From an uncultured cyanobacterium (GTDB lineage: Bacteria; Cyanobacteriota; Cyanobacteriia; Cyanobacteriales; Cyanobacteriaceae), in contig CAVQBA010000006.1 in NCBI GenBank assembly GCA_963710605.1, positions 288,001 through 352,000 on the forward strand: a DNA stretch of 64,000 nucleotides, written 5' to 3'. Position 1 is the stretch's first letter, and each line of letters begins with the position of its first letter. The notes beneath the pieces were generated by a model. That model was not told the origin of the DNA. It made no database searches and was given only the letters and a program-made list of their open reading frames with translations. This document shows positions 13,545 through 56,669 of this stretch, piece by piece. Both the position numbers and the translations under genes were made by a program.

Positions 13545-14000
13545 ATGACCAGTATATTAAGTGAAGCAGGTATTACTGCTGATGACTATTGTCTTTTCGG
13601 ATTAGCCACTTGTTTTGTCAGAGAAGAAGGAGAAACCAAACAAATAGAAGTTATCGAACCCATCCCCTCAGCGGCAATAGAAGCACTATTAAAAGGAATT
13701 CCGACTTCTTACAAATTAGCCGTCGCTAAAAACGTAGGTGATATTATCAATGAGGATAAGTTACAAAAACCTAGTGAATTTCCTAGTGATAGTCAATTTG
13801 GTGAAAACTTTATTGAAAGAACTTTTGCGGCTACTCGTACCTACAAAAGTAAGCCCTCCGCTCAAAAATATATAGCTTTAGGTAGCTCTAAAACAGATTT
13901 AAACTACTCTATGGAAAGAAAAAGAATTTTGAATAATGCTAAGGCTGTATCTGATGATGATAATGTCAAACAACACCCTCATACTCATAATAAAGTTTAA
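13545..14000 (+). CDS. Conserved hypothetical cyanobacterial protein
   Basis: 151-aa ORF; DDYCLFGLATCF, EPIPSA and DNVKQHPHTH look like a conserved cyanobacterial family. Confidence 0.75.
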   Translation: MTSILSEAGITADDYCLFGLATCFVREEGETKQIEVIEPIPSAAIEALLKGIPTSYKLAVAKNVGDIINEDKLQKPSEFPSDSQFGENFIERTFAATRTYKSKPSAQKYIALGSSKTDLNYSMERKRILNNAKAVSDDDNVKQHPHTHNKV

Positions 14001-16141: not shown

Positions 16142-16161
16142 GCTCTTATCCTCATATTAGC
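15980..16161 (+). ncRNA. Predicted omega/reRNA of TnpB; scaffold ends at 16141, guide is the downstream GST flank (5' boundary approximate)
   Basis: Inferred from the established IS605 architecture; the right-end hairpin is visible. Confidence 0.55.
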
Positions 16162-16537
16162 CAGTATCTAGAGAAAATTACTCAACGCCCTGCTTTTAAA
16201 AATACGATCGGTAAAAGATAAATAGACAATTTTGAGTAGAATCAACTATAGTAAGGCGAGTGTTAATGTTTAATTGAGCATCTTTTTTCGATTTTACTCC
16301 TTTTGCGACTCATAGTGATTTAATTGTTTTTGCCCATTAAAATCAAAAATTATTTGTAGATGATTTGTTTGAGTAACTAAATTCGAGCGATTACCAAAGA
16401 AATAGTTTACACTAGGATGTCAGAGAAAAAAGAAACAAAAATTGTCTCTATCTGTCATTAAGTAATAATATGTTTATTAAAATTATTTCCCGTATTTAAA
16501 TATATGCTGAATCGGGATTATCATCAGGAGTAATAAT

Positions 16538-18553
16538 ATGGTCAAATTTTATGCTTTTATTCTTAGCTGTTTAAGCATTGTGTCTTTAGCTACACCCGCT
16601 CAAGCAGGAAGACTATTATTTTGGCGATTTGATGATAATCAAAATCGTCTTACTTTTACAACAGATCAAGGTGTACAACCTACGGCTCAACTAATAGCTA
16701 ATCCAACTAGATTAGTGATCGATTTACCAGGTACAGTCTTGGGGAGACCGACAATTAATGAAAGCTATCGTGGCGTAATTACTAGCTTAAGAATTGGTCA
16801 ATTTAATAGTAATACAACTAGAGTTGTCGTTGAATTAGCTCAAGGATATGTCTTAGATCCACAACAAATTAAAGTCAAAGGCATTTCACCTACTCAATGG
16901 GCAGTTGATCTACCTAACCCTCAAAGAGGTAATTTTCCTTCTTCTCAAAATAATTCTTCTAATAATACCTCTAATCAAACTGTTACTCGCCCCGTTAATC
17001 CACCAACGAACAATCAGACAACTACAACTAATAATACGAGTAATTCATCTACTAGTAGTGGTGATGATGGCTTACTGATTACATCAAGTGGCTTAGTTGT
17101 TAATCTTAATGGCAGTTATCAAAATGGTATTGAAATAGAACGTAGTCAAGATCGCCGTGAAATAACGATCGAAATTGATCAACTCAAAGTTCCAACTAAT
17201 TTAATTAGATCTTGGCAGGTTAATCAATATGGTGTAAGCGAAGTTAACGTTACTCAGACCAATGAGAATAAGGCTACTGTGACGATGAAAGTCGATCGTG
17301 ATAGCCCAGAATGGCAAGCTACATTTATGCGAACAGGAGGGCTTTTGATTTGGCCTCAAGGAGGAGTTAGCAGAGTCAAAAATTTATCTTCTCCTCAAGT
17401 CATTAGTAATAACAACAACAATAACAATAACAACAGTAAATCTATTTCGGTTATTTCTCCTTCGACTAATTCTAACAATAATGTTATTGAAGTAAGTCAA
17501 AGACCAACAACTACTAATACTACTAACAATAATCAAACTGCTATTCTTGATTATCTACAAATTAGCTACAACCAATTATTGATTAAGAGTAATGTCTCTA
17601 TTCAAGCAAAAGCTAACTGGATTAATGGAAATAAAGTTTATCAAATTCGTTTAGAAAATACTAAGCTATCACCTGTATTTCAAGATCCAACTCTGCCTAA
17701 AGATAGTCCGATCGCTCGATTACGGATTTTAGAACCGAATGATAAAACAGTAATCCTCGAAATTGAACCAGCAAACGATACTCAAATTCAGCGTTTAAAC
17801 CAATTACGTAATAATCTTTGGACTTTAGCCTTAAATAAAGATCGTAATTTTGCTCGTCAAATACCAATTAACACAAGAGTTCCTATTAATCAAGGTTCAT
17901 TAACAATTGATCCATTTAATAACACTCCTACTCGTAACAACACTAATCCTAACTCTATTGCCGTTACACCAAGTCGTCCAACTACGATTAATCCTTCAGC
18001 CGTAAAATCGAAAGCTGTAGTATTTATCGATCCCGGTCATGGTGGAAAAGATCCAGGTGCGATCGGTATAGGTGGAATACAAGAAAAAAGAATTGTTATG
18101 GCAATTTCTCAAAAAGTCGCCCAAATTCTTGAGCAACAAGGAATACAAGTACGTATGACTCGTGATAGCGACTATTTTGTCAGTTTAGCAGGACGGACTA
18201 ATATGGCAAATAAAGCCAATGCTGATTTGTTTGTTAGTATTCATGCTAACTCAGCAGGAAGCAATAAACCTCAAGTAAGTGGCTACGAAACTTATTACTT
18301 TCAAACTGGTAAAGGTTTAGCTGATGTAATTCATCGTAATGTCTTAAGACGAGTTGACGTAAGAGATCGTAAAGTTAGACAAGCTCGTTTTTATGTTTTA
18401 CGTAAATCAAGTATGCCTTCTGTGTTGGTGGAAACAGGTTTTCTTACTGGTACTGAGGATGCGGCTAAATTAACGAATCCTACCTATCAAACACAAATGG
18501 CACAAGCGATCGCCTCAGGAATTATTGAGTATATTCAAGCTAATCGTCTTTAA
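16538..18553 (+). CDS. amiC: N-acetylmuramoyl-L-alanine amidase with AMIN domains
   Basis: Signal peptide; AMIN motif NPTRLVIDLPG; Amidase_3 motifs IDPGHGGKDPGA, FVSIHAN, LVETGF; upstream of murI. Confidence 0.92.
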   Translation: MVKFYAFILSCLSIVSLATPAQAGRLLFWRFDDNQNRLTFTTDQGVQPTAQLIANPTRLVIDLPGTVLGRPTINESYRGVITSLRIGQFNSNTTRVVVELAQGYVLDPQQIKVKGISPTQWAVDLPNPQRGNFPSSQNNSSNNTSNQTVTRPVNPPTNNQTTTTNNTSNSSTSSGDDGLLITSSGLVVNLNGSYQNGIEIERSQDRREITIEIDQLKVPTNLIRSWQVNQYGVSEVNVTQTNENKATVTMKVDRDSPEWQATFMRTGGLLIWPQGGVSRVKNLSSPQVISNNNNNNNNNSKSISVISPSTNSNNNVIEVSQRPTTTNTTNNNQTAILDYLQISYNQLLIKSNVSIQAKANWINGNKVYQIRLENTKLSPVFQDPTLPKDSPIARLRILEPNDKTVILEIEPANDTQIQRLNQLRNNLWTLALNKDRNFARQIPINTRVPINQGSLTIDPFNNTPTRNNTNPNSIAVTPSRPTTINPSAVKSKAVVFIDPGHGGKDPGAIGIGGIQEKRIVMAISQKVAQILEQQGIQVRMTRDSDYFVSLAGRTNMANKANADLFVSIHANSAGSNKPQVSGYETYYFQTGKGLADVIHRNVLRRVDVRDRKVRQARFYVLRKSSMPSVLVETGFLTGTEDAAKLTNPTYQTQMAQAIASGIIEYIQANRL

Positions 18554-41320: not shown

Positions 41321-41851
41321 TTATTCAAGTAGATTAACAGAAAAATCTAGTGGTTTACCTCTAATATCAGTAACTGCTATATCCCATTGTCCGTTATTAG
41401 CAACTTCAAATGTTATTCTTTCTCCATTACTACTAATTAAAGGATTTCTTATTTCTCGGCTATTTTTAGTAATTAAAGCTCTTTTTTGTTGTGTAGTTCG
41501 ATCGTATAAATATAAACCCGATTTGTTTTCGTCTGCTACCATCATAAAAACCAAATAACGACCATCTTCAGAAATAGAAGGATTAGAAGCAACTTCATTA
41601 AAAGCATTCAAACCCGGTAAATCTATTAAGCGACGTGTTTGAGCATTAAATAGATAAATATCTTGTGAGCCATTACGATCGCTACTATAAGTAATGAAAG
41701 CACCTGAGACAGAAGGATGTAATTCAGCCGATCGAGTATTAAAACTTCTACCGTTATCAGAAAAAGGAAAATTTAATAAACGAGGATAATTACTACAACT
41801 AGTTAATAAACCTAAAAATAAAAGGATTTTAATTAATATTAATAATCTCAT
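41321..41851 (-). CDS. TolB-like (PD40 repeat) lipoprotein
   Basis: Lipobox LLTSC; SDRNGSQDIYL and PSISEDGRYLVF repeats. Confidence 0.8.
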   Translation of the reverse strand: MRLLILIKILLFLGLLTSCSNYPRLLNFPFSDNGRSFNTRSAELHPSVSGAFITYSSDRNGSQDIYLFNAQTRRLIDLPGLNAFNEVASNPSISEDGRYLVFMMVADENKSGLYLYDRTTQQKRALITKNSREIRNPLISSNGERITFEVANNGQWDIAVTDIRGKPLDFSVNLLE

Positions 41852-41994: not shown

Positions 41995-42024
41995 CTTTAA
42001 TGATTCTTTACCTAATGTTAAACT
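41995..42024 (+). promoter_or_regulatory. Pho-box-like (SphR/PhoB) site upstream of the first pstS
   Basis: CTTTAATG-att-CTTTACCT-aat-GTTAAACT: three 8-mers at 11-bp period resembling the cyanobacterial CTTAACCT-type repeat. Confidence 0.55.
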
Positions 42025-42077
42025 TCGTCAGGTAGTTAGATATAAATAATAATCAGGATAAATAGATCTGAATCTAA

Positions 42078-43157
42078 ATGTCAATAATTAAACCAACTAA
42101 AATCTTTAAACGTACTTTCGGCTCTTGTTTGTCTTTGTGTTTAGGATTATTATCAACTTCTTGTGGCAATAACTCCCCGATTACATCAAACAAAACTGTC
42201 TCCTTACAAGGCTCTGGTACTTCTTTTCCTGCACCTTTATATCAAAGATGGATTCAAGAATATAGTGATAATTATAACAATATTACGATCGATTACGAGT
42301 CAATAAACAGTGGTATCGGGATACAAGATTTTATGGCAGAAAATGTTGATTTTGGAGCGACAGACGCACCTTTAACAACAGAAGAAAGAGCTAGATATCC
42401 TGAAGATAGAGGTCAAGCAATTCAAATACCAATGACAGGGGGTTTACTCGTTTTTGCTTATAATCTATCTGATTATGAAGATAGTCAAAATATTCGTTTA
42501 TCTCGTCAGACTTATTGCGGTATTGTTAAAGGTGAAATCACTAACTGGAATGATCCTGCTATCATAGCTGATAATCCTGATGCACGTTTACCTAATTTGC
42601 CTCTAATTTTCGTTCATCGTGATGACAGTAGTGGTACTACTTTCTTATTTGCTAATCATCTACAAGAAGTTTGTGATAATTGGGAGTTAGGGGCGAGTAA
42701 AGTCGTTGAATGGCCAGTAGGAATAGGTGCTGATGGAAATGAAGGTATCAGTGCTTTAATTCAACAAACCCAAGGTACAATTGGATATCTTCAATATTCT
42801 TATGCTGAAAATGAAAATATACAAGTGGCAACGCTAGAAAATCAAGCAGGTAATTTTATTAAACCTAGCTCAGAAAGTGCTTCTAGGGCATTTACAATTG
42901 ACCAAATACCTGAAGATTTGGTAATATTGATTCCCGATCCTCAAGACACGAATGCTTATCCGATAGTCGGTTTAACTTGGTTACTGGTGTATAGCAGATA
43001 CGACGAAGAACCAGATAAAGCTAGAGTAATGCGAGATTTTGTGGAATGGAGTTTGACTCAAGGAGATGAGATTGCTTCCGAGTTAGGTTATTTTCCTCTT
43101 CCCGATCAATTACAAACAAGGGTACTTAATACAATCCAAAATAACTTAGAACAATAA
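42078..43157 (+). CDS. pstS: Phosphate-binding lipoprotein PstS, copy 1
   Basis: Lipobox-like STSC; GSGTSFPAP, DFGATD, HRDDSSGTT, YPIVGLTW. Confidence 0.92.
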   Translation: MSIIKPTKIFKRTFGSCLSLCLGLLSTSCGNNSPITSNKTVSLQGSGTSFPAPLYQRWIQEYSDNYNNITIDYESINSGIGIQDFMAENVDFGATDAPLTTEERARYPEDRGQAIQIPMTGGLLVFAYNLSDYEDSQNIRLSRQTYCGIVKGEITNWNDPAIIADNPDARLPNLPLIFVHRDDSSGTTFLFANHLQEVCDNWELGASKVVEWPVGIGADGNEGISALIQQTQGTIGYLQYSYAENENIQVATLENQAGNFIKPSSESASRAFTIDQIPEDLVILIPDPQDTNAYPIVGLTWLLVYSRYDEEPDKARVMRDFVEWSLTQGDEIASELGYFPLPDQLQTRVLNTIQNNLEQ

Positions 43158-43443
43158 TAACACCGAAAATACGATCGTAATCTATCTAAAATTCACTTAT
43201 TTTCTTTCATTACGGTCTTTTTTTTATGATTTTACCAAAAATAAAAATGAGTAAATCGATCGAATTATAGGTAAAAAAGCTAATTCCAGAATAAATTATT
43301 AATAATAATCTATTCTAAAAAAAATAGTATTTAGACTTGAAAAAAGTTTTTTCTCTATTTTAGTTCAAAATAAACTTATTTTATTTTTATTAGTATAACA
43401 AGTTACTAAATGATCAAAAATAAATGCTTTATAATATCCTAAT

Positions 43444-43473
43444 ATTTATCAATTCTTTACCTGATTTTAAACT
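43444..43473 (+). promoter_or_regulatory. Pho-box-like site upstream of the second pstS
   Basis: ATTTATCA-att-CTTTACCT-gat-TTTAAACT, at the same distance from the ATG as in copy 1. Confidence 0.55.
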
Positions 43474-43526
43474 AGACTAGGTAGCTTAAATACATGATGA
43501 ATAAGATGAGTAAAATCTGAATTAAA

Positions 43527-44600
43527 ATGTCAATAATTAAAACGACTAAAAAAATTAAGCAGACTTTTAGTTCATGTTTATTTTTGTGTTTAGGCTTGTT
43601 GTCAGCATGTGAAACAAAATCTCCTGTTGCTTCAAATACAACTGTCTTGATACAGGGTGCTGGGGCTTCTTTTCCCGCTCCGTTGTATCAAAAATGGATT
43701 CAAGAATATACTGATAATTATGAAAACATAAAGATTGATTATGAATCGGTAGGCAGTGGTAAAGGTATCCAAAATTTTATGGCAGAAAATGTTGACTTTG
43801 GTGCCACAGATGCTCCTTTAAAATTGGAAGAAAAAGCAAGATATCCTCAAAATAGAGGTCAGGTAATTCAGATTCCTGTCACAGGAGGTTTACTCGTTTT
43901 AGCTTACAATTTATCGAACTATGAAGATACTCAAGACATTCGTTTATCTCGTCAAACTTACTGTGGTATCGTCAAAGGTGAAATCACTAACTGGAATCAT
44001 CCAGCGATTGTGGCTAATAATCCTGAGGCACGATTACCCGATCTACCTTTAATCTTTATACATCGAGATGATAGTAGTGGTAGTACTTTTTTATTTACTA
44101 ATCATCTACAAGAAGTTTGTGATGATTGGCAATTAGGGGCGGGAAAAGAAGTTGAATGGGATGTAGGAATAGGTGGTGATGGTAATGAAGGTGTAAGTAC
44201 TTTAATTCAACAAACACAAGGCACAATTGGGTATATTGAATATTCTTATGCTAAAACCAAAAACCTGCAAACTGCTTATTTAGAAAATCAAGCGGGTAAT
44301 TTTATTAAACCTTCATCAGATAATGCTTCTAAGTCATTTGTCATTGATACTATTCCTGAAGACTTTGCCATAACAGTCACAAATCCTCAAGCTATTGATG
44401 GTTATCCTATAGTTGGTTTAACTTGGCTGTTAATCTATAGCCAATATGACGATCGAGATAAGGCAAAAACAATACAAAACTTCGTTGAGTGGAGTTTAAC
44501 TCAAGGAGATGATATTGCCTCCGAGTTAGGCTATTTTCCTCTCCCCGATCGATTACAAACAGAAGTATTAAACAAAGTAAAAAACAACCTATCACAATAA
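43527..44600 (+). CDS. pstS: Phosphate-binding lipoprotein PstS, copy 2
   Basis: Lipobox LSAC; GAGASFPAP, GSGKG, DFGATD, HRDDSSGST; colinear paralogue of copy 1. Confidence 0.92.
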   Translation: MSIIKTTKKIKQTFSSCLFLCLGLLSACETKSPVASNTTVLIQGAGASFPAPLYQKWIQEYTDNYENIKIDYESVGSGKGIQNFMAENVDFGATDAPLKLEEKARYPQNRGQVIQIPVTGGLLVLAYNLSNYEDTQDIRLSRQTYCGIVKGEITNWNHPAIVANNPEARLPDLPLIFIHRDDSSGSTFLFTNHLQEVCDDWQLGAGKEVEWDVGIGGDGNEGVSTLIQQTQGTIGYIEYSYAKTKNLQTAYLENQAGNFIKPSSDNASKSFVIDTIPEDFAITVTNPQAIDGYPIVGLTWLLIYSQYDDRDKAKTIQNFVEWSLTQGDDIASELGYFPLPDRLQTEVLNKVKNNLSQ

Positions 44601-44718
44601 GACAATTGATAAATTGATAATAATAACTAATTATCATAAGTTTAGTTTATTAATTGTACATTTTGCATAATAAAAAATAATGAGTACCAAAATAACATAA
44701 GCTTAAAAAAGAACTACC

Positions 44719-45852
44719 ATGAGTACCGTTTTAAAAACTAGAAAGATGTCTCAATCTCCTAAAAGTATAGTCGCAATACCTTATAAAGTTATTCAAGGAT
44801 TAATTGCGAAGAAAGTATCAGGTAAATTGACAATAGAAGATCCCAATGATATCTCTATTGTTTGGGTATTATACTTAAATGATGGCAAAATTAATTTTGC
44901 TACTAGCCAAGGCGGTAAAATCCAACGAATTGTTTATATTCTGACTAAATACTATCCTGGTTACTCATGGGAAATACCTCAGCAAGTTGATGATGATTAT
45001 CAATTTTTTGAGCAGTTATATCAAAACAAATTACTAACAAAAGAAAAATATCGACAAATTCTTTGGGTATATACTCAAGAAGCACTAATTCAATGTTTAT
45101 CATTATCTAGAGCAAAAGTTAGCTTTAGTAAAGAAAATAATTTAGGAGAAATTGTTTTGAATGCTAGTATTAAAAAGCTAGTAAATCCTATCAAGAGAGA
45201 TATTAGCTTATGGGCAAAACAAAAGCAATCAGTTTCTTCACCATTTATCCGCCCTGTGATTCAAAAATGGCCTTCTCTTCAGTATCATTTGATCAACAAG
45301 CAAACCATACTAAAAAAACTCGAAAAACTCAAACCTTACTTTAATGATGAATGTACATTATACGAAATTGCCGAACATTCTGAATTTACAACTTTAGAAT
45401 TAGCTACAATTATCACACCTTTAATTAAAGAAAAATTAATTATCATCAAAACATTTAAAGACATACCAGTGAGGAGAAAACCTGTGGTAGCTTGTATTGA
45501 TGATAGTGCCGCAATACAAAGAGTTGTTAAAATGACTTTGATAGCTGGAGGATTTGAGGTAGTTAGTATAACAGAACCAGCTCTTGCAATTAGTTCTTTT
45601 GTACGGAAAAAACCTGATTTAATTTTAATGGATATTAATATGCCTAACATTGATGGCTATAAATTATCTTATATGATTAGACAATCAACTTTGCTAGCAG
45701 ATATACCTATTTTAATGTTGACAGGTAGAGATGGAGTACTCGATCGAGTGAAGGCAAAAATGGTCGGTGCAGTCGGTTATGTATCTAAACCGTTTGAGCC
45801 GCAAGAATTGATAAAATCAATCAATGAACATATGATGCAAAATAAAATTTAA
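44719..45852 (+). CDS. PatA-type response regulator (PATAN plus receiver)
   Basis: N-terminal SGKL...W.LYL..GKI.FA; C-terminal ACIDDS, LILMDINMP, KPF; first gene of a taxis cluster. Confidence 0.88.
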   Translation: MSTVLKTRKMSQSPKSIVAIPYKVIQGLIAKKVSGKLTIEDPNDISIVWVLYLNDGKINFATSQGGKIQRIVYILTKYYPGYSWEIPQQVDDDYQFFEQLYQNKLLTKEKYRQILWVYTQEALIQCLSLSRAKVSFSKENNLGEIVLNASIKKLVNPIKRDISLWAKQKQSVSSPFIRPVIQKWPSLQYHLINKQTILKKLEKLKPYFNDECTLYEIAEHSEFTTLELATIITPLIKEKLIIIKTFKDIPVRRKPVVACIDDSAAIQRVVKMTLIAGGFEVVSITEPALAISSFVRKKPDLILMDINMPNIDGYKLSYMIRQSTLLADIPILMLTGRDGVLDRVKAKMVGAVGYVSKPFEPQELIKSINEHMMQNKI

Positions 45853-45870
45853 TTAAGGAAAAATTATTTA

Positions 45871-46233
45871 ATGAAAAAAATTTTAGTAGTGGATGATTCT
45901 AAATCTCAGCAAAAATTAGTCAACGGTTTGCTTAAAACTTTAAATGTAGAAATTGCTTCTGCTGAAGATGGTAATTCAGCTTTAAAGTGGTTGGGTGAAA
46001 ATGATTTACCAGATGTTATTTTAATGGATATTGTGATGCCTGATATGAGTGGATTAGATGTGTGTCGTCATATCCGCCAAGAAATGAATCATAAAGCCGT
46101 ACCGATTATTTTTGTAACTACAAAGAGCGAAGATTTTGATAAGTTTTGGGCATTAAGACAAGGAGGAAATGATTATATCACTAAGCCCTATAGCCCGATG
46201 GTTTTGATCAATACTGTTAAAAATTATTTATAA
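45871..46233 (+). CDS. CheY-like single-domain receiver
   Basis: ILVVDDS, DVILMDIVMP, DKFWALRQG, KPY. Confidence 0.92.
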   Translation: MKKILVVDDSKSQQKLVNGLLKTLNVEIASAEDGNSALKWLGENDLPDVILMDIVMPDMSGLDVCRHIRQEMNHKAVPIIFVTTKSEDFDKFWALRQGGNDYITKPYSPMVLINTVKNYL

Positions 46234-46257
46234 ATGTTTAATTAATAACTTTAGTAT

Positions 46258-46701
46258 ATGGATTATTTTATCGTCGAGTTAGCTCAAAAAACATCAACAA
46301 TCGCCATTCCTCTGGAGCAAGTTCAAGAAGTAATTAGTGTTAATGCTGTTGACATTTGCCCTATCCCCGGAGTTAGTGAGGCTATTTTGGGGATGATGAA
46401 TCAAAGAGGAAACTTAATCTGGTTATTAGATTTATCACTACTTTTGCTAAATGATCGTACCTTAAATAATCAAATACGATCGGCTAAAGTGATTATCGCC
46501 ACAATCGAACAAAAAAAAATTGGTTTAATAGTAAGTAAGTTACAAGAAATAAAAGAGTTGTTAATAATTAATCCTCAAAGGGAAATATCTAATTATCAAA
46601 CAACTGATTATTTTATCGGTATTACCGACAATGAGCTAGCAGAACCAATTGCTGTGATTGATTTAGACAAAATTAATCATTATTTAAGTCTTCGTAATTA
46701 A
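46258..46701 (+). CDS. cheW: CheW-like adaptor
   Basis: IPLEQVQEV, PIPGV...LGMMNQRGNLIWLLDL. Confidence 0.9.
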   Translation: MDYFIVELAQKTSTIAIPLEQVQEVISVNAVDICPIPGVSEAILGMMNQRGNLIWLLDLSLLLLNDRTLNNQIRSAKVIIATIEQKKIGLIVSKLQEIKELLIINPQREISNYQTTDYFIGITDNELAEPIAVIDLDKINHYLSLRN

Positions 46702-46754
46702 TAATTTATTCAATCTACTACTATTACTACTACTTCTTTATAAGGTATTAAATT

Positions 46755-49343
46755 ATGACTCAAATTGAAAGTAAACGCGATCTAATTCAATCTCAATTTT
46801 CTCCTGATATTATTGAATTACAAAATGCTGTTAATGATAATCCTGAAGATTTAATTAATAAATTATCTTTAGCGATCGCACTTGAACAAGAAAAACACTA
46901 TCAAGAAGCGTTCGATGTTTATCAAGATATCATTAAAAATGACGAAGAAAAAGTCTTATCTGATACCGCTCAAGAAGCAATTAATAACCTTAAAGCTCAA
47001 AACTTAATTGTTACTCCTGAAGTAGAAATAGCTCAAAAACAAGAGCCGATACAAAAGCAAAAGCTACAAGTAATTGAGCAAAAGAAAGAAAAAAGTGATT
47101 TACTTTACAAATTAGCTAGTTTACCGATTGGTTCAAAACAATTTATTGCTTTATTAGTATCTAGTTTAATTTCGATTTTAGGGGTTGTTTTAGCAGGGAG
47201 ATTTATTGCTACTACCTTGGGTGAGGCTCAATTAGAAAGACAAGCGGTGACAGAATTAGAAGTCTCCTTAAACAACTATCAATCTCGTATTAACGAAACA
47301 GAATCAGGATTTAGAGGGCAAGCAGATAACAGCACGGTGATTGAAGCGGCTAAGATTTATCGAGCGACAGGCTTAGTACCAAATAATTTGGAAACTAATT
47401 TAAGAAGAATTTTAGTTAATGAAGTATCATCTCGTCAAATTGAGTACGCTACACTAATTGGTTTAGATAGTAAAGTAATTGCTAGTGCTAATAAAGATCG
47501 ATTCGGAATTATTTTCAACCCGAATAATTTGTTAGAAGAAACATTAAAAAATCCTCGTCGATTCCAAACAAATGCGATCGTCTCAGCCGAAGAAATTGCC
47601 ACCGAACAACCACCATTTTATGAAAGAATTAAAGACCAAGATGTATTAATGAACTTTACTTTCACCCCTGTAGTCGATCCAGCGGCAAATATAATCGTTG
47701 GTTTTTTAGTTGGTGGAGAAATAGTTGATGGTAAAACTTTATTCTTAAGAAAAACGCTAGAGACAATCGGTGGTGGTTATGGAGCAATTTATGCTTATAA
47801 AAATGACGAATTAGTTTTGGTTACCTCGGCATTACAAGAAGCCGGTAGCGATGAAGTTGAGACAAACATACCCTTACCCGATTTAAGCATTATTGAACAA
47901 GCACGAAGAGGGGTTGGTGGCGACTTAGTCCAACATCTGAAAATTGAGGATAAATGGTACTCTGTGGCGGTAAAAGCCCTACCTAACTATCAAGGGGAAG
48001 AAATTGCTTTTCTAGTTAGAGGTACACCAGAAGCCCAATTACAAACATTACTTAATCAAAGTTTGACTTATCAATTATTAGTTGGTTTAGCGACTTTATT
48101 AGTAGCAATTCTATTAGCCCTTTTACTCGGAAAAGCATTAACTCGCCCAATTTTGAAACTACAACAAACAGCCGAGAAAATTGGTGCGGGTGAGCAAAAT
48201 GTAAGAGCGGAAGTTACCAGTAATGATGAAGTAGGGCAACTAGCACAGACATTAAACGAAATGGCGGCACAAATTGAAATCTCTAATGCCGAAATCGAAC
48301 AATTAGCTCAACAACAAGAAGCAGAAGCAAAACTACAAAGACAGCAAAGAGAAGAATTACAGAAAAACGTGATCAATCTCTTACTCGAAATTGAAGGTGC
48401 AAGTAGAGGGGATTTGACTGTAAAAGCTGGGGTAGTAGCAGGGGAAGTTGGTTCTATTGCAGATGCTTTTAATACTACCATTAGAGGGTTAAGAAAACTG
48501 GTACAACAAGTAATCGATTCAGCCACCTTGGTACAACAAACAGCTTTAAGTAATGGACAATTAGTTAATAACTTAGCTCAAAACTCTAACAAACAAGATC
48601 AATCTATTCAAACAGTCGGGGTATCAATTGAAGAAATTGCTCAAAAGAGTGAAAATATTAGTGAATCAGCTCAAAATGCGTCTTCGATCGCTCGTGAGTC
48701 TCGTTTAACTGCCCAAGAAGGAGAAAAACTAATTGATGATACCGTAGATAATATCTATCAAATTCGTCATACTGTAGCTGATACCGCTAAAAAAGCCAAG
48801 CGTCTAGCTGATTCTTCTCAAGAAATTTCTAAGATTGTCAGTATTATTTCCAGTATTTCTGAGAAAACAAACCTCTTAGCTTTCAACGCTTCAATTGAGG
48901 CGGCAAGGGCGGGAGAAAATGGTCAAGGTTTTCGGGTAGTAGCCGATGAAGTACGAAGACTAGCAGAACAGGTTACATTTTCGACTCAAGAAATTGAACA
49001 ATTAGTTATCGGTATTCAAGAAGAAACAGGTCAGATGATGAGTATGATGGAAGAAAGTACGACTCAGGTAGTCACAGGTACTAATTTAGTTAAAAGTACT
49101 AAAGATAACCTACAAAAACTTGCTCTAATTAGTAATCAAATTGATACACTCTTAGAATCAATTACTGCTAGTACTGTACAGCAAAAATTAATTTCGCAAA
49201 AAGTGAATAATCAAATGCAAGAAGTAGCGGTAGTAACCAAACAAACAGCAGTTGAATCGAATACTGTATCTCAATCTTTACAAGAGTTAGTGACTGTAGC
49301 AACAGATATGCAAAAATCGGCTTCTGACTTCCAAGTAAACTAA
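46755..49343 (+). CDS. Methyl-accepting chemotaxis protein: TPR-like N-terminus, two TM, large periplasmic sensor, HAMP, signalling domain
   Basis: [13 protein letters not shown] (HAMP); [33 protein letters not shown]. Confidence 0.95.
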
Positions 49344-49441
49344 TTTAGTTAATAGTTAAGAGTTAAAAGTTAAGAGTTAACTAGCGAATACTTAAATTCT
49401 TAATTATTCATTATTCATTATTAATTATTAATTATTAGATC

Positions 49442-52210
49442 ATGCTTGATGATAACATTTTGGCTTTAATTGCTATTGAATCACGGACTTGTTTTTTAGA
49501 AGAAGATGCCCCAGAATTTTTAGGTATTTTAAAACAAGGAATTCCTCAATTACAATCTGTTTTCCAACAAGAGGGTGAAAACGATCGATTACTTGCAGTG
49601 TATCAAGAATTAGGTAGAGCGGCACATTCAATTAAAGGTGGTGCGGCAATGGCAGGGATGAGTCTTATCACTCAACTTGCTCACCCGATGGAAGATCTTT
49701 TTGAAGCATTACAACATAATCGTATCATCGAGATAGAAACAGCGATCGAATTATTGTCTCATTCAACTCAAGAGTTAGAAAGTTTAATTGAAGATGAAAA
49801 TAACAATCTTACTCATGACTCAAAAATTAAGGAAGAAAATGAGCTTAAAGTTGAAGAATTAGTTACCGTTTTACAAGAGTTTTTAGCATCTGCCCAACCA
49901 GATAATCAAACAGCCGAGATTGGTTTACCTGATCATGATTTTATTAAAACTGCTTTACGTGATGATTTATCAGATTGTATTAATCGAGTACAAGAATTTA
50001 TTGATAATCAAGATTTAGCAACTGACAAAAACTTAAGAGAAAGTTTACATATTTTGTTAGAAGAATGTCAGCTATTAGGACAGGCTTTAAGTTGTGACTG
50101 GTTAGTCGAAATTAGCCAAATTGTTAAAGATTTGGAAGTAGATAATAGTTTACCTTTAATTGATTTTGTTCAGTTATCTATTCAAGAAATAAATAAGCAG
50201 AAAGAGTTGTTTTTATCTAGTGATTCAGATTTTAATTTAGAATTATCTAGCGATTTTAAGAAATTACTAAAACCAACTAAAGTTGAAGTCTTAACTCAGA
50301 CGCAACAAGTTAAGCCGACTATTATTCAAGCTAAAACTAAAACTAAAACTAACGATCGTAAATTAAGAGTGCCTTTAGATAAAATCAATAATATGGGAGA
50401 CTCAGTTGGGCAATTGCTAATTTTTTATGAGCAACTAAGTTTGTATGAAAAGCAGATGAAACTTGCAAGCACAAACCTTAAAAAAAGAACTAAATCATTG
50501 TCTCCTTTAAAAGAAGAATTACAGTCATTTTATGACCAACTAACTATTAATGAAAAACTAAATATTTCCTCTTCATCTAATCAGTTAGCTAAAACTACTG
50601 CCGTTTTAATACCAGAAAAAACAGCCGAATTTGATAGCTTGGAATTCGATCGTTATAATAACACTCATACAACTCTACAAAGCTTAACCGAATTAATCGT
50701 TCAAGTCGAAGAAGTTAGAGAAGATTTTGACTTAGTTAATCGAGACTTCCAAGAAACCTTGATTGATATGCGTAAATCTCTTGATAACTTAGACAAAGAC
50801 TTAAGACAAGTTAGATTAATACCTTTCAATAATCTGGCGAGTAGTTTTATCAAACCATTAGCAAAACTGAATCAAACCTATCAAAAACCAGTAGAATTAA
50901 TCATTGAAGGAAAAGATACTTTAGTTGACCAAAATATCATCGAAGCCTTACGTACTCCATTAAACCATCTAATTAGAAATGCTTTTGACCATGGTATCGA
51001 ATCCCCAGAAATTCGTCAACAATCAGGAAAATCATTACTCGCCCAAATTACCTTAACCGCAAAAATTGAAGGAAACAATGTTGTTATTTCTATAATCGAT
51101 GATGGTAAAGGTATCGATATCGACAAAGTAGCTACAAAAGCAAAATCATTAGGTTTACTTGATTCACAGTCAAATTCATCAGCAAATCGAGAAGAAATCT
51201 TAGAGACAATTTTTTCTCCCGGTTTTTCGACGGCTAATCAAGTTACTGAATTGTCAGGTAGAGGAGTAGGGATGGATGTAGTTAAAGCCGAAATAGAAAA
51301 ACTTAGAGGCACAATTCAAATTGACACAGCACAAGGTAAAGGTAGTCAATTTCAGTTAAAAATACCGATGACACTAAACATCATTTCTTTACTGTTAGTG
51401 AAAATGGGTACACAAATAGTGGCAATTCCTTCGGCTGATGTTAAAAGAATTATTCGTTTAAATGATTATCAAAAAAATGAAAATCAACAATTATCTTTTG
51501 AGGATGAATTAATTCAGTTTTATCCCCTCGATTGTATTTTACCCTATCAAAACGATCGACAAGATCAATTTTCTCAACCCTATGTCGGTTTACTCATTAA
51601 TGTAGCAAACAAAAAAATTATCGTTGGTGTTGATGCTGTAGTTGATGAAAAACCTCTAGTAACTAAAAGTTTAGATGATACAGTTGCCACTCCTCCTTAC
51701 CTAGCAGGTTGTACAATCTTAGGTGATGGTAAAGTTGTGCCTATCTTTATTCCTGATTATTTTAATTCCTTACTGGTAAAATCAAATTCTCAAGCTGATA
51801 ACAACCATCAAGATAATCAACCCAAAGTAATCAAAACGGAGAATATATCAATCATGGTAATAGACGATTCTGTCGCCCTTAGACGTATTCTCACTCGTGT
51901 ATTAACCCAAATTGGTTATCAGGTAACTCAATGTCGTGATGGTAAAGAAGCATGGAATACATTACAAAATACTAATCAGAATTTCGATTTAGCTATTTGC
52001 GATTTAGAAATGCCCGGTTTTGATGGTTATAAAGTATTACAATTAATTCGAGTTAGTGATAAATGGGCTAATTTACCTGTGATTATTCTTACTTCCCGTG
52101 ATAATGATTTACATCGTCGTAAAGCTTTTGATTTGGGGGCAAACGATTATCTCACCAAACCTTTTAACCCTCTAGCTATCGTTGAAAAAGTAGCCAGTTT
52201 TTTTGCATAA
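49442..52210 (+). CDS. cheA: Hybrid CheA-like histidine kinase (Hpt, HATPase, CheW, receiver)
   Basis: RAAHSIKG, HLIRNAFDHGIE, DDGKGID, SGRGVGMDVV, C-terminal IDDS...CDLEMP...KPF. Confidence 0.95.
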   Translation: MLDDNILALIAIESRTCFLEEDAPEFLGILKQGIPQLQSVFQQEGENDRLLAVYQELGRAAHSIKGGAAMAGMSLITQLAHPMEDLFEALQHNRIIEIETAIELLSHSTQELESLIEDENNNLTHDSKIKEENELKVEELVTVLQEFLASAQPDNQTAEIGLPDHDFIKTALRDDLSDCINRVQEFIDNQDLATDKNLRESLHILLEECQLLGQALSCDWLVEISQIVKDLEVDNSLPLIDFVQLSIQEINKQKELFLSSDSDFNLELSSDFKKLLKPTKVEVLTQTQQVKPTIIQAKTKTKTNDRKLRVPLDKINNMGDSVGQLLIFYEQLSLYEKQMKLASTNLKKRTKSLSPLKEELQSFYDQLTINEKLNISSSSNQLAKTTAVLIPEKTAEFDSLEFDRYNNTHTTLQSLTELIVQVEEVREDFDLVNRDFQETLIDMRKSLDNLDKDLRQVRLIPFNNLASSFIKPLAKLNQTYQKPVELIIEGKDTLVDQNIIEALRTPLNHLIRNAFDHGIESPEIRQQSGKSLLAQITLTAKIEGNNVVISIIDDGKGIDIDKVATKAKSLGLLDSQSNSSANREEILETIFSPGFSTANQVTELSGRGVGMDVVKAEIEKLRGTIQIDTAQGKGSQFQLKIPMTLNIISLLLVKMGTQIVAIPSADVKRIIRLNDYQKNENQQLSFEDELIQFYPLDCILPYQNDRQDQFSQPYVGLLINVANKKIIVGVDAVVDEKPLVTKSLDDTVATPPYLAGCTILGDGKVVPIFIPDYFNSLLVKSNSQADNNHQDNQPKVIKTENISIMVIDDSVALRRILTRVLTQIGYQVTQCRDGKEAWNTLQNTNQNFDLAICDLEMPGFDGYKVLQLIRVSDKWANLPVIILTSRDNDLHRRKAFDLGANDYLTKPFNPLAIVEKVASFFA

Positions 52211-52456: not shown

Positions 52457-53155
52457 ATGAAAATAGTTTTCAATACTTCTCCTGTCAAAATTATTAAATA
52501 CCTGAGTATCGTATTTATCATTCTCAGTATCTTAAATTTGATGGTACAACTATCCAAATATGCTTTTGGTTATCGAGAAGCATGGATGTTTATTTTTAAT
52601 ATGGATAGGGAAGTAAATTTTCCTACCTTATATACTGTTATATTACTTGGTCTGAGTGCTTTTATTCTTTTACAAATTGTCAAGTTAGAAAGCAATCAGC
52701 AAAAGTCATTAGTGCCATATTGGAAAAGATTACACTATATCTTTATTTATTTAGCTTTAGACGAAGCATTTCAAATTCATGAGTTATTTATTATTCCTGA
52801 ATTGGGTAAGCAACTACCCGGTATCTTCCATTTTTTATGGGTAATTCCTTATGGGTTAATTACGCTTTATTTTGCTAATTATTTTTTAAAGTTTGTTTTT
52901 AAGTTACCAAGAAAAATCAATCGATTATTGTTAGTTTCTGGCACTTTTTATATTGGTGGGGCGTTAGGAATGGAAATGGTAGAAGGTGTTTGGGTAAGAA
53001 TTGCCGGCGGAATGCAAAATTTGATTTATGCTTTACTTGCTAGTGTTGAAGAAATGATGGAAATTACTGGTTTACTTATTTTTATTTATACTTTACTTAT
53101 TTATATTATTCAATATTATCAACAAAGTATAAATGTAGAGATCAATATTAAGTAA
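52457..53155 (+). CDS. Multi-TM hypothetical membrane protein
   Basis: Hydrophobic; FNMDRE.NFPTLY, LALDE...IHE, VEEMME. Confidence 0.75.
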   Translation: MKIVFNTSPVKIIKYLSIVFIILSILNLMVQLSKYAFGYREAWMFIFNMDREVNFPTLYTVILLGLSAFILLQIVKLESNQQKSLVPYWKRLHYIFIYLALDEAFQIHELFIIPELGKQLPGIFHFLWVIPYGLITLYFANYFLKFVFKLPRKINRLLLVSGTFYIGGALGMEMVEGVWVRIAGGMQNLIYALLASVEEMMEITGLLIFIYTLLIYIIQYYQQSINVEINIK

Positions 53156-53292: not shown

Positions 53293-55179
53293 ATGAATGA
53301 TTTAGTTTTTTTTTGTTTATTATCTTTAGGTAGTTTAATTGCTATTTATTTGTTTTGGTTTGTTTGTCAGTTTAATGGTAAAACTATTCTTTATTATCTT
53401 GGTAGTTTTAATCGGCATATTCCAACTGAAAATTTTTTATTAACAAATACTAAAAATAATCATCAAGATTCAGTAACTATTTATTTAATAGGCATAATGC
53501 CTGTCGCAGTCTTAAGCATTCTTACCGCAAGATTCGATCGATGTTTTAATAGTTTATTCGCTACCTTGGTTTTTGAATTTGTTGTTTTTATTCTCTTTTT
53601 ATTTATCCCTTCAGTAATTAAAAAGCAAGCCTATTTTTTCGGTATTCAAACTATTAAAAATAATTTAAACGTAGTGTTTTATGCCAGTTTATGGTGTTTG
53701 TCATTTGCTTTGTGGGCAACTATTAGTCATCAGCAACCTTTAGATTATATGATTTCTAACACTAATCCTGATATGTGGGCTTATGTTAGACGTTTTGGGG
53801 CAATGACTACTGATAATCTATTTTTTTATCGTGGTTTTGATAGTTTTACTTTTGAAAATAATTCGGCTTGTGCTTATTTGTTAGGTAGTCCGAAAAAGTT
53901 TAGTTCTTTTTTAGGCTCTATAATAGTCTATATTTTTGGTGGCTCATCAATCGGTATTGGTGTGTTTCAAGGAACATTAGGAGGTATTTTATTTCTTTGT
54001 TTATTTAAAGAATGGTTTACCATCAAATTAACAACTAAAAATGGGTTTTCTGGCGGAAAATTCTTATTAATAACTTGGGCTTTATCTTCTCCTTCAATTT
54101 ATTGGTTAATGATTAGTGCTTATTTTTCTAATGCTTTATTTGTCATCATGGTTTGTTTGGCTTTAAGGCAAGGAAGAAATGTTGCTATTAATTGTCAAGT
54201 TGATTCAGTTACCAATTTATTTTGTTTTGCTTCACTTTTAATTATTGTTTTTGCTTTTTATCCTGCTTTTTTACCTGTAATTATTTTTGTTTATTCGATC
54301 GTTATCTTAGTTTATCTACCGAGTAATTGTTGGCAATTATCCAAACTTAGCCAAATTATTGGTAAATTTTTTGCCGTAATATTTATTTGTGGTTTAGTAT
54401 TTTATTTTATTTTTCCTACCCAATTAGGTTTAGAAGAAGTCCAAAAAAGCTTGAATGTTTTAACCGCCCATGGCTCGAATTTTGTCCCGCTTAATCCTTG
54501 GAGTTTGTTACAAGAAAAACCAAAACCAATGGCATTACAAAGAGATTTTGGTTGGTATTTTAATATTGTAATCAGTTTACCAATTAGTATATTTATCGGC
54601 TGGAAACTATGGCAAAAATATCAACGTTGTGATGGTTATTTAGCTCGTCGTGACCTGTTAGCGGGGATCGTTGGGGTGGGGATTTATCTGGGTTATTTAC
54701 TCGCTTATATTCCCCTAGAACATAGTTACCGCTTAATGAAAATAGTAATTTCACTTGTGTATCCGATCGCTATTTTTGGCGTTTTACCTTTTATTATGTG
54801 GAGTAAAAATAAACTTGAAGGGAAATCGAATCTTGTGAAGCAAATATTTTTAGTATTAGCGATCGCTCATGTTATATTTCATATTCATAAAGTATTTGAC
54901 CTCAATCCATATCCGACGGGTAACTTCACCATAACCAATCCTGAAAAACTAAAGTATGTGCAAAATATTACCCTTGTAGCTTGCCCTGAAGTTCATGTTA
55001 GTCAGTTTTATGAAAGATTAGTTGGTTTAAAAATTGCCCGACTTTATCCTAATTTACAAGTAAATGTGATTAAATTTCCTGAAGATATAGAACAAATTAC
55101 TAACCCTGAAACGATCGTTTATGGTGAAACGAGGATTGAAAATAAAACTGAACAAAAAACCTGTCATTTTTCTTTTTAA
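53293..55179 (+). CDS. Large polytopic membrane protein of unknown function
   Basis: 628-aa ORF with many TM segments and loop NTNPDMWAY. Confidence 0.7.
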   Translation: MNDLVFFCLLSLGSLIAIYLFWFVCQFNGKTILYYLGSFNRHIPTENFLLTNTKNNHQDSVTIYLIGIMPVAVLSILTARFDRCFNSLFATLVFEFVVFILFLFIPSVIKKQAYFFGIQTIKNNLNVVFYASLWCLSFALWATISHQQPLDYMISNTNPDMWAYVRRFGAMTTDNLFFYRGFDSFTFENNSACAYLLGSPKKFSSFLGSIIVYIFGGSSIGIGVFQGTLGGILFLCLFKEWFTIKLTTKNGFSGGKFLLITWALSSPSIYWLMISAYFSNALFVIMVCLALRQGRNVAINCQVDSVTNLFCFASLLIIVFAFYPAFLPVIIFVYSIVILVYLPSNCWQLSKLSQIIGKFFAVIFICGLVFYFIFPTQLGLEEVQKSLNVLTAHGSNFVPLNPWSLLQEKPKPMALQRDFGWYFNIVISLPISIFIGWKLWQKYQRCDGYLARRDLLAGIVGVGIYLGYLLAYIPLEHSYRLMKIVISLVYPIAIFGVLPFIMWSKNKLEGKSNLVKQIFLVLAIAHVIFHIHKVFDLNPYPTGNFTITNPEKLKYVQNITLVACPEVHVSQFYERLVGLKIARLYPNLQVNVIKFPEDIEQITNPETIVYGETRIENKTEQKTCHFSF

Positions 55180-55295: not shown

Positions 55296-56669
55296 ATGAA
55301 AATATTATTTGTGGCGGCAGAAGCAACACCGATTGCTAAAGTAGGAGGAATGGGTGATGTGGTTGGTGCATTACCTAAAGTCTTAAAAAAACTAGGTCAT
55401 GATGTCCGAATTATTTTGCCTTATTATGGCTATCTCCCGCAAATATTAGACATCTCTTATTATCCTGTTTGGGGAGGAGATACCATGGGGCAACACTTTG
55501 AAATATTTGAAAGTAAATTACCCGATACCGATATCCCTTTGTATTTATTCGGTCATTATTCTTTTGCAGGAGATAGTATCTATGGAGGGCATGACGAATA
55601 TTGGCGATTTACTTTATTTTCTAAAGCCGCCGCTGAATTAGCTTGGAATTATTGGAAACCTGACGTGATTCATTGTCATGACTGGCATACAGGAATGATA
55701 CCCGTTTGGATGCAACATACACCCGATATTCATACTATTTTCACTATACATAATCTATCTTATCAAGGGCCATCTCGTCACGATTTACAACATATGACTT
55801 GGTGTCCAGATTATATGTGGGGCGAGAATGTGATGGCGGCGGCTTTGTATTCGGCTGATGTTGTTAATGCGGTTTCTCCTAATTATGCGATCGAAATTAA
55901 AACACCAGAATATGGTGAACACCTCAATCATGTTTTGTGTGATATTGATTATAAACTTAGGGGAATTGTTAATGGGATTGATGTGGAAAAATATAATCCC
56001 GATACAGATAAATTTATTGAAGTAAATTTTGATCATGAGACTTTAGACAATAGAATCAAGAATAAGTTACGCTTACAAGAAGAATCGGGTTTACAAGTAA
56101 ATCAAAATAAATTTCTCTTGGGAATGGTAAGCCGTTTAGTTGAACAAAAAGGGATTGATTTATTATTAAAAGTAATGGATCGTTTTTTACAACATACAGA
56201 TGCTCAAATTCTTATTTTAGGTACAGGCGATCGTTTTTATGAGTCTAAGTTATGGGAAATCTCCACTCGTCATCGAGGACGTGTTTCAATCCAGATAGTA
56301 CATAATGAAGCTATTTCTCGTCAAGTTTATAGTGGTATTGATGCTTTTTTAATGCCCTCTCGTTTTGAGCCTTGTGGTATTAGTCAGTTGTTAGCGATGC
56401 GTTATGGTGCAATTCCGATCGTGCGTGAAACAGGTGGTTTAATTGATACAGTCGCCTTTTTTGACCCTAATAATAAATCTGGTACGGGTTATCGCTTTAA
56501 ACGTTATGATGCTTTAGATTTCTATACTTGCATGATTCGTGCTTATGAAGGTTATCGTTTTCATGAGTCATGGCAACAGCTACAAATTCGTGCCATGACT
56601 CAAGATTTTAGTTGGCACAAATCAGCTTTAGAATATATCCAAATGTATGAAGACGCAGTCAACAGTTGA
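55296..56669 (+). CDS. glgA: Glycogen synthase
   Basis: KVGGMGDV, HCHDWH, TIHN, PSRFEPCG, TGGLIDTV. Confidence 0.96.
   Translation: MKILFVAAEATPIAKVGGMGDVVGALPKVLKKLGHDVRIILPYYGYLPQILDISYYPVWGGDTMGQHFEIFESKLPDTDIPLYLFGHYSFAGDSIYGGHDEYWRFTLFSKAAAELAWNYWKPDVIHCHDWHTGMIPVWMQHTPDIHTIFTIHNLSYQGPSRHDLQHMTWCPDYMWGENVMAAALYSADVVNAVSPNYAIEIKTPEYGEHLNHVLCDIDYKLRGIVNGIDVEKYNPDTDKFIEVNFDHETLDNRIKNKLRLQEESGLQVNQNKFLLGMVSRLVEQKGIDLLLKVMDRFLQHTDAQILILGTGDRFYESKLWEISTRHRGRVSIQIVHNEAISRQVYSGIDAFLMPSRFEPCGISQLLAMRYGAIPIVRETGGLIDTVAFFDPNNKSGTGYRFKRYDALDFYTCMIRAYEGYRFHESWQQLQIRAMTQDFSWHKSALEYIQMYEDAVNS

Follow-up and report, generated by a model that had tools for sequence, protein, structure and literature searches.

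On a 64,000-nucleotide stretch of DNA from an uncultured cyanobacterium of the family Cyanobacteriaceae (assembly GCA_963710605.1, contig CAVQBA010000006.1, positions 288,001 to 352,000), referred to here as the window, two genes encoding the phosphate-binding protein PstS lie head-to-tail directly before a chemosensory gene cluster on the same strand. The cluster encodes a PATAN-REC response regulator (REC, receiver domain; the gene is called patA below), a CheY-like regulator, a CheW-like coupling protein, a methyl-accepting chemotaxis protein (MCP), and a CheA-REC hybrid kinase. Domains were called with Pfam and NCBIfam on a map of the open reading frames (ORFs), and coordinates are collected in Table 1. 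The window corresponds to C6:288001-352000 of the genome labeled G000 in our comparison, an assembly of 3.93 Mb in 7 contigs with 84.9% marker completeness; other genomes, contigs, loci, and Genome Taxonomy Database (GTDB) families carry labels beginning with G, C, L, and f. An earlier sequence-only reading had seen in this arrangement a candidate phosphate-taxis system. The two pstS genes and the five-gene taxis cluster are where it had placed them, the 118-bp gap that it gave between the second pstS and patA measured 118 nucleotides (nt) from stop codon to ATG, and its statement that no pstC, pstA, or pstB lies nearby was borne out by profile searches and by tblastn with the genome's own PstC, PstA, and PstB, neither of which found a match in the window.

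Table 1. Features of the pstS-chemosensory locus (positions within the window)
Feature	Position	Strand	Basis or remark
PD40/TolB-like beta-propeller gene	41321..41851	-	Pfam PD40; divergent neighbor upstream of the PstS genes
Pho-box-like triple repeat TTTAATGA-TTC-TTTACCTA-ATG-TTAAACTT	41996..42025	+	score 21/24; 53-82 nt upstream of pstSa
pstSa, orphan phosphate-binding lipoprotein, PstS clade C	42078..43157	+	TIGR00975, 317.2 bits; tree
Pho-box-like triple repeat before pstSb, duplicated together with the gene	43444..43473	+	score 20/24
pstSb, orphan phosphate-binding lipoprotein, PstS clade C	43527..44600	+	TIGR00975, 325.5 bits; tree
Spacer between pstSb and the PATAN gene, A+T-rich, 118 nt	44601..44718	+	neither terminator-like site nor Pho box found
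patA, PATAN(DUF4388)-REC response regulator, TaxP2 type	44719..45852	+	Pfam, best match, tree
CheY-like single-domain response regulator, TaxY2 type	45871..46233	+	Pfam Response_reg; 55% identity to CheY of the G196 Tax2 cluster
CheW-like coupling protein	46258..46701	+	Pfam CheW
MCP, TaxD2 type	46755..49343	+	Pfam TPR, HAMP, MCPsignal; alignment to Tax2 MCP
CheA-REC hybrid kinase, TaxAY2 type	49442..52210	+	Pfam Hpt, HATPase_c, CheW, Response_reg

Both PstS proteins pass the TIGR00975 equivalog cut-off of 205 bits and match Pfam PBP_like_2, and their N termini carry a hydrophobic stretch ending in cysteine (..LLSTSC.. and ..LLSAC..) that fits lipoproteins. The two are 75% identical over the mature part. 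The closest solved structures to PstSb are themselves PstS proteins (E value of 2e-59), with the motifs of the phosphate site aligned. These motifs, G(A/T)SFP, SGxG, DFGATDAP, and HRDDSSG(S/T)TF, are invariant or nearly so across a 33-row alignment, in which the only changes are conservative ones from Thr to Ser. The residues that coordinate inorganic phosphate (Pi) we take to be T10/F11, S38, D56, R135, and S139-T141 in the numbering of Escherichia coli PstS.

The genome contains four PstS genes of this type and a single pstC-pstA-pstB set, which is located on another contig. A profile search of the genome placed pstC and pstA matches on contig C4 only and PstB-type matches above the cut-off at C4:806 kb and C6:122.5 kb, the second pstB lying about 208 kb upstream of the PstS pair. 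The pstS directly upstream of the sole pstC-pstA-pstB set (C4:809227-810163, minus strand) shows an apparent frameshift near codon 305, with a change of frame after ..DPEGA and the C-terminal 70 residues in another frame. This gene could be a true pseudogene or reflect an indel error in the assembly. A third PstS type (clade B, ~342 amino acids) is encoded at C6:120042-120950 on the minus strand, ~1.6 kb from the second pstB-type gene (C6:122545-123309, plus strand); the latter, divergent to the clade B pstS, encodes an ATPase above the PstB cut-off and is without an adjoining pstC or pstA.

The chemosensory cluster was identified by comparison with Synechocystis. A Synechocystis genome in our set (G196) encodes six PATAN regulators and three clusters, as described for that organism: Tax1 with two MCPs, a contiguous PATAN-CheY-CheW-MCP-CheA-REC cluster, and Tax3, a PATAN-CheY-MCP cluster with its CheA elsewhere. 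The contiguous cluster carries the published 30-nt PhoB site of sll1291 verbatim, 90 to 119 nt upstream of its PATAN ORF, and is therefore Tax2. The PATAN-REC protein of the window is 39% identical to the Tax2 protein of G196 (266 bits) and scores much lower against Tax1 (127 bits) and Tax3 (119 bits, 27% identity). Both larger proteins of the cluster align to their Tax2 counterparts over the full length, the MCP at 46% identity (query residues 15-861, 703 bits) and the CheA-REC kinase at 40% (residues 1-922, 701 bits); the Tax3 MCP (869 amino acids) aligns to the MCP of the window only from residue 437. In a tree of 21 PATAN proteins, the window protein falls into a Tax2 clade (support of 99 in the Shimodaira-Hasegawa-like approximate likelihood ratio test [SH-aLRT]) with its family orthologues, the protein of the sll1291 cluster, and three Synechocystis orphan regulators, and Tax1 and Tax3 lie on the other side. 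This agrees with a statement in a preprint (bioRxiv 10.1101/2021.06.11.447907) that the Synechocystis orphan PATAN regulators derive from a Tax2 gene. The cluster is thus a Tax2-type operon, the orthologue of Synechocystis sll1291-sll1296, an assignment that these comparisons support well.

The same preprint reports that disruption of Tax2 in Synechocystis left motility unaffected, and it states that the cues sensed by the MCPs of Tax2 and Tax3 are not known. The sequence-only reading had taken clusters of this kind generically to control type IV pilus motility; for the Tax2 type, where disruption gave no motility phenotype, such control is an extrapolation. The genome in question does contain type IV pilus ATPase genes, and the Tax2-type cluster may act on such pili. 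Elsewhere the genome has five further MCP genes at four places (C2:12.4-24 kb, C4:156-164 kb, C4:1240-1244 kb, and C5:75-80 kb), one of these places holding a PixJ-like pair with a CheA (Tax1-like), and three other PATAN-REC genes that are solitary (C4:273 kb, C5:139 kb, and C6:267 kb). A clear Tax3-type PATAN-MCP cluster was not recognized in this genome with the PATAN and MCP queries used.

The linkage of PstS to a Tax2-type cluster recurs in other genomes. Orthologous clusters were counted as evaluable if at least 1.5 kb was available upstream of the PATAN gene (n = 32); 11 further loci or genomes were left unjudged, being cut by a contig end, incomplete, or left with less than 1.1 kb of upstream sequence. 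In 8 of the 32 evaluable genomes, from three GTDB families (f1, f9, and f31), the cluster is immediately preceded by a PstS belonging to the clade of PstSa and PstSb (clade C, below). Since the 32 clusters include kin and are not independent, counts are given without a P value. Within the window's family the arrangement is found in G000 itself, G004, G005, G013, and G015, and outside it in L050 (genome G113), L048, and G156 (families f9 and f31), the clade C proteins being ~52 to 57% identical across the three families. The adjacency is therefore not unique to this genome, which was the question of synteny that the sequence-only reading had raised, and the arrangement, shared by these 8 of the 32 evaluable genomes, is beyond chance. 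The PD40/TolB-like gene upstream of pstSa also flanks clade C PstS in G004, G009, G012, G017, and G001. In G009, G012, and G017 the PstS has separated from the cluster and stays with this divergent gene; in G006 the PD40 gene abuts patA and the PstS is missing; and in G010 neither PstS nor PD40 lies beside the cluster. The linkage has thus been broken at least twice in the window's family, and the overall pattern gives good support to one ancestral linkage that was retained in three families and lost several times. Two Tax2-type clusters are unusual in themselves. That of L037 (G027:C1:2500000-2519500), from the genus Synechocystis, has at 13902-17447 an extra Hpt-only CheA fragment (residues 1-278) before the full-length CheA-REC, which resembles a partial duplication of the kinase N terminus; in L052, two Tax2-type PATAN-REC genes (3645-4709 and 7970-9034), 3 kb apart, lie upstream of one cluster, the CheA of which was read in three pieces and may be frameshifted.

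Phylogenies of PstS, built from 36 rows with a careful method and from 56 rows with a quick method, showed that all of the cluster-adjacent PstS proteins and the three separated ones group together in a monophyletic clade C (support of 100/99 in the 36-row tree and SH-aLRT of 98 in the 56-row tree), which sits on a long stem. PstSa and PstSb are a lineage-specific duplicate within it (100/100). The sister clade holds transporter-linked PstS proteins, and where flanking DNA was examined, pstCAB genes were found at 0 of 11 clade C loci versus 9 of 19 loci of the sister clade; clade B and, in the sister clade, eight orphan loci of family f35 are likewise without pstCAB. A cysteine pair (PstSb residues 146 and 198) was considered as a signature of signaling in clade C and rejected, as it also occurs in the transporter-linked sister clade. 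In an even sample of 401 genomes across the order, matches to PstSb with an E value of at most 1e-100 came from 31. The 56-row tree, from which five of those matches were absent, placed 10 of the 31 genomes in clade C, and all 10 carry a Tax2-type cluster. No clade C-type PstS match was found in the eight members of the window's family that are without the cluster. The only clade C genome in which a Tax2-type cluster was not observed is the incomplete G001, the sole other genome of the window's genus, where the PD40 gene and a clade C PstS lie at a contig end (G001:C65; L177, 4345-5661). Its PstS is closer to that of G004 (73% identity) than to PstSa and PstSb (65 to 68%); judged from these identities, the two copies in the window may have evolved faster after their duplication.

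Regulation by phosphate has been reported for the Synechocystis orthologue. According to a 2024 study (Nat Commun; PMC11126600), PhoB binds the sll1291 promoter in electrophoretic mobility shift assays and by chromatin immunoprecipitation (enrichment of 3.78), the locus is induced under phosphate deprivation, with listed fold changes of 5.3 for sll1291 and 4.3 for sll1296, and the Pho box is made up of three repeats in tandem that have a TTAA core. The repeats before the window's pstS genes were scored against three YTTAAYYW units at 11-bp spacing, with a maximum of 24; both lie 53 to 83 nt before the ATG. The core CTTTACCT-N3-NTTAAACT is present at the same position relative to pstS in G004, G009, G012, G013, G015, and G017, whether the cluster follows or not, and the 22-nt motif ATTCTTTACCTNATNTTAAACT has just two copies in the 3.93-Mb genome, one before each pstS. 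A loose genome-wide scan for Pho boxes (three units, at most four mismatches) gave 994 hits and was rejected as too unspecific; positional conservation and strict two-unit boxes were used in its place.

Upstream of patA, perfect two-unit boxes (YTTAAYYW-N3-YTTAAYYW) are located at -100 to -130 in G004, G009, G013, G015, G017, and G006, on the strand opposite to patA, and they are the sole perfect boxes in the 163.6 kb of those loci. Boxes matching at 15 of 16 positions are found in G012, G010, and G196, that of G196 being part of the published PhoB site, and one matching at 14 of 16 is found in G091; the orthologues in the window's family have this inverted box in common with Synechocystis. 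The density of TTAA-cored boxes of at least 14/16 is 2.26 per kb over the 300 nt before patA versus 0.12 per kb in the loci. The window differs: its whole genome has 20 perfect two-unit boxes in 3.93 Mb, none of them near patA, and no two-unit box of at least 14/16 was found in the 300 nt upstream of the gene, nor was a two-unit patA box found in G005, L048, L050, or G156. The spacers between pstS and patA are 14 nt in G005, 118 nt here, 190 nt in L050, 306 nt in G013, 359 nt in G156, 393 nt in G015, and 478 nt in G004. No terminator-like site was detected on the plus strand of the 118-nt spacer, which folds into an AU-only hairpin with a nonsignificant z-score of -1.39. Because the Pho box of patA has been lost and a mere 118 nt, with no terminator, separate the gene from pstSb, the operon of the window is probably transcribed by read-through from the promoter of pstSb (and that of pstSa), and the same may hold in G005.

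Taken together, orthology and the conserved boxes give good support to the view that the PstS pair and the Tax2-type cluster belong to the phosphate-starvation response, and by orthology both units would be switched on by SphR/PhoB under Pi limitation. The Pho regulation suggested in the sequence-only reading is accordingly favored by the Tax2 orthology, by the Pho boxes of the patA orthologues, and by the Pho-box-like pstS promoters. That a chemosensory cluster of cyanobacteria is under Pho control is not new, since PhoB control of Tax2 was published in 2024 (PMC11126600). In the openly accessible literature, we found no mention of a pstS gene joined to such a cluster in cyanobacteria or of a cyanobacterial PstS-MCP pair. 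For phosphate-starved PCC 7002, the accessible text of another study (PMC11358556) mentions "bacterial motility" genes that change with phosphate; the direction is given inconsistently there, and that text names no taxis genes.

The MCP consists of a cytoplasmic N-terminal tetratricopeptide repeat (TPR) region, a transmembrane helix, a periplasmic double-Cache-like domain (47223-48053), a second transmembrane helix, a HAMP domain, and the signaling domain. Hydrophobic stretches at about residues 130 to 155 and 435 to 457 flank the periplasmic domain of ~280 amino acids, and Pfam found no GAF domain in the protein, in line with the large periplasmic domain and the lack of GAF described from sequence alone. 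Pfam matches to the periplasmic domain were sub-threshold only (dCache_3, E value of 0.017; sCache_3_3, E value of 0.0015). A model of residues 157 to 433 from a 75-row alignment (predicted local distance difference test [pLDDT] of 92; predicted template modeling score [pTM] of 0.87) has a long helix at its N terminus and two alpha/beta modules after it, and is confidently predicted to have the double-Cache/LuxQ-periplasm type of fold. Foldseek gave 199 matches in the PDB at an E value of at most 0.001, led by LuxQ and followed by other double-Cache domains, among them those of DctB, Tlp3, PctA, and TlpA. The top match, the periplasmic domain of LuxQ, was solved together with the binding protein LuxP (2hj9_C; E value of 6.4e-8; TM-scores of 0.48/0.60). 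The periplasmic domain of the MCP, at 33 to 41% identity, also occurs in longer, GAF-bearing PixJ-like MCPs and therefore predates the linkage to PstS.

A complex of the MCP periplasmic domain with mature PstSb was also predicted. It scored 0.40 (0.40, 0.43, and 0.00 in individual runs), and the best of three controls scored 0.06; the partners were modeled with a pLDDT of at least 89, and the agreement of contacts between runs was at least 0%. Of 157 solved complexes, 116 reach the mark that this score passes, as do 2 of 215 mismatched pairs; at scores of at most 0.60, just 18 of the 157 solved complexes and both of the passing mismatches do so. The modeling thus lends weak support to a predicted contact between PstSb and the MCP: the check that the sequence-only reading had called for was passed weakly against the controls, with one of the three runs at zero.

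We hypothesize that the locus is a phosphate-starvation module of two units in which PstS is a co-receptor feeding the Tax2-type operon, an interpretation to which we give close to an even chance. The first unit would be the tandem of orphan, lipoprotein-type, high-affinity PstS proteins of clade C, each with its own Pho-box-like promoter, and the second would be the operon for PATAN-REC, CheY, CheW, MCP, and CheA-REC. Pi-loaded PstSa or PstSb, anchored on the periplasmic side of the membrane, would dock on the double-Cache domain of the MCP in the manner of LuxP on LuxQ and of PstS on CtpL, and this docking would modulate CheA-REC. The phosphorylation state of PATAN-REC and CheY would then bias type IV pilus activity, so that starved cells could move, or alter their surface behavior, according to external phosphate. 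The step on which this scheme turns, PstS as the Pi co-receptor of the MCP, is plausible, with a likelihood that we place just under one-half. Its extension to Tax2 systems in general, as phosphate-taxis or phosphate-dependent surface-behavior systems in which clade C PstS is a signaling-dedicated, Pi-loaded co-receptor of the TaxD2-type MCP, we offer more tentatively.

Several observations weigh against this scheme, the main rival of which is co-regulation only. Under that explanation, PstSa and PstSb would be extra high-affinity binding proteins for the single PstCAB transporter, the adjacency would reflect a shared Pho regulon and promoters, and the MCP would sense something else or would itself be the receptor for Pi or some other ligand, bound directly in the Cache pocket. 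Both proteins exceed the PstS equivalog cut-off, and their intact Pi-site motifs and lipoprotein signals are as compatible with plain uptake as with signaling; if the frameshift in the pstCAB-linked pstS is real, the pair may even be needed for uptake. It is common for pstS to be an orphan, as in clade B and at the eight f35 loci. The linkage broke repeatedly within one family: G009, G012, and G017 keep both clade C PstS and cluster, but apart, and G006, G010, and G018 have the cluster but gave no clade C PstS match. Among the evaluable Tax2-type clusters, 24 of the 32 have no adjoining PstS, including that of Synechocystis, where Tax2 is Pho-regulated all the same. Genomes without clade C PstS have MCPs in which the periplasmic domain is conserved; this domain is common to GAF-bearing MCPs and is therefore not specialized for this PstS, and its structural matches include many double-Cache chemoreceptor domains that bind small ligands directly. 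The complex score, with one of its runs at 0.00, may echo the solved LuxP-LuxQ complex, and the pstS motif alone is not distinctive, as matches of at least 20/24 occur about 0.25 times per kb in this A+T-rich genome.

On the other hand, co-regulation does not easily explain why PstS has stayed immediately before this cluster in three families, or why these proteins form a separate, long-stemmed clade with none of its 11 loci beside pstCAB, and the complex prediction did pass the mark, if weakly, against controls of at most 0.06. Because the linkage is dispensable, most clusters are without clade C PstS, and the PstS proteins appear competent for uptake, we regard co-regulation without contact as a serious contender that is nearly as likely as the co-receptor scheme. 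Alternatively, the adjacency could be what remains of an ancestral order of genes, with independently regulated units that have no functional relation. Most members of the window's family have spacers of 300 to 480 nt and a conserved patA 5' region, and the breakpoints in G009, G012, and G017 fall between pstS and this region, as inherited synteny would predict. However, the adjacency recurs in three GTDB families, Pho-type boxes stand on both units, the Synechocystis orthologue is experimentally Pho-regulated, and in this genome and G005 the patA box is gone and the spacer reduced to 118 and 14 nt, respectively; we therefore consider inherited synteny improbable. A further rival, a Tax3/PilG-L/Hmp pilus-biogenesis system with the PstS genes as unrelated neighbors, was suggested by the same generic PatA-CheY-CheW-MCP-CheA order and by the JGI names "PilJ" and "PilG" of relatives, which are generic labels, but it is refuted by the PATAN scores, the partial alignment of the Tax3 MCP, and the separation of the PATAN clades and retains hardly any likelihood.

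Beyond the cluster, directly 3' of the CheA gene, two ORFs on the plus strand (52457-53155, 232 amino acids; 53293-55179, 628 amino acids) resemble polytopic membrane proteins; neither has a Pfam or NCBIfam match, and they are not HmpF-like. The pair sits in a stretch with strongly negative AT skew and is followed by a gene for a GlgA-type glycogen synthase (55296-56669).

Two independent lines now point toward phosphate as the cue of Tax2, namely, the published PhoB control of sll1291 and the attachment of a PstS paralogue to the orthologous operon. If the co-receptor scheme is true, it would be the first time that a binding-protein-coupled chemoreceptor, and a chemical cue, could be assigned to a cyanobacterial type IV pilus chemosensory pathway, and the locus would add a Cache-type, pilus-coupled member to the few known binding-protein-dependent chemoreceptors. 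The missing Tax2 phenotype in Synechocystis would then reflect phosphate-replete assays in which the operon was barely expressed. The scheme is also relevant to foraging by benthic and bloom-forming cyanobacteria for the nutrient that most commonly limits them, and it makes the question of the Tax2 cue experimentally addressable through PstS binding and motility in Pi gradients.

Binding-protein-dependent sensors are known from other organisms. A review (PMC8050422) includes LuxQ/LuxP, CtpL/PstS, BasT/BasB, and CosT/CosB among the pairs that it lists, none of them cyanobacterial in its accessible portion. The mechanism proposed here is that described for CtpL-PstS of Pseudomonas aeruginosa (Rico-Jimenez et al. 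2016; PMC4926252), in which a Pho-induced, Pi-loaded PstS stimulates a chemoreceptor. The two systems differ in several respects. The ligand-binding domain of CtpL is, according to the review (PMC8050422), a four-helix HBM domain, whereas that of the window's MCP is modeled as a double Cache/tandem PAS domain; the P. aeruginosa PstS is the transporter's own binding protein, whereas clade C is a separate orphan clade beside receptor genes; the output of CtpL is flagellar, whereas that of the window's system presumably involves type IV pili; and binding has been demonstrated for CtpL-PstS, whereas the PstS-MCP contact in the window is a prediction. The Halobacterium transducers BasT and CosT are described in the review (PMC8050422) as double-Cache-like and as having adjacent lipoprotein binding proteins, BasB and CosB, that are listed without a transporter tag; these systems are archaeal, with other binding-protein families and ligands, and are likened here by description only. 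LuxQ of Vibrio has a tandem-PAS/double-Cache-like periplasmic sensor, which provides the best structural matches to the MCP domain (2hj9_C, 2hje, and 3c30) at 10 to 12% sequence identity and moderate TM-scores of 0.45 to 0.71, and the gene for LuxP, according to the review (PMC8050422), lies beside the sensor gene and outside any transporter, like the PstS genes of the window. However, LuxQ is a histidine kinase and the receptor here is an MCP, and LuxP, which serves the ligand AI-2, belongs to Peripla_BP_4 and not to PBP_like_2.

Among cyanobacterial systems, Tax3/PilG-PilL of Synechocystis is a paralogous PATAN-led cluster acting on type IV pili; it belongs to a different paralogue clade, and the N-terminal half of its MCP is unrelated to that of the window. 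The Hmp system of Nostoc, also a pilus-biogenesis chemosensory system, would be a comparable case. The nearest relative is Tax2 of Synechocystis (TaxP2, TaxY2, TaxW2, TaxD2, and TaxAY2). It differs from the window's system in that clade C PstS, which precedes the operon here, in two copies, and also in seven other genomes, was not found in Synechocystis G196, G091, and G027, and in that sll1291 has a PhoB site of its own whereas the window's patA does not. In other respects the two correspond: both MCPs are without a photoreceptor domain, the gene order is the same, and PATAN-REC, CheA-REC, and the MCP, with its N-terminal TPR and periplasmic domain included, are full-length orthologues.

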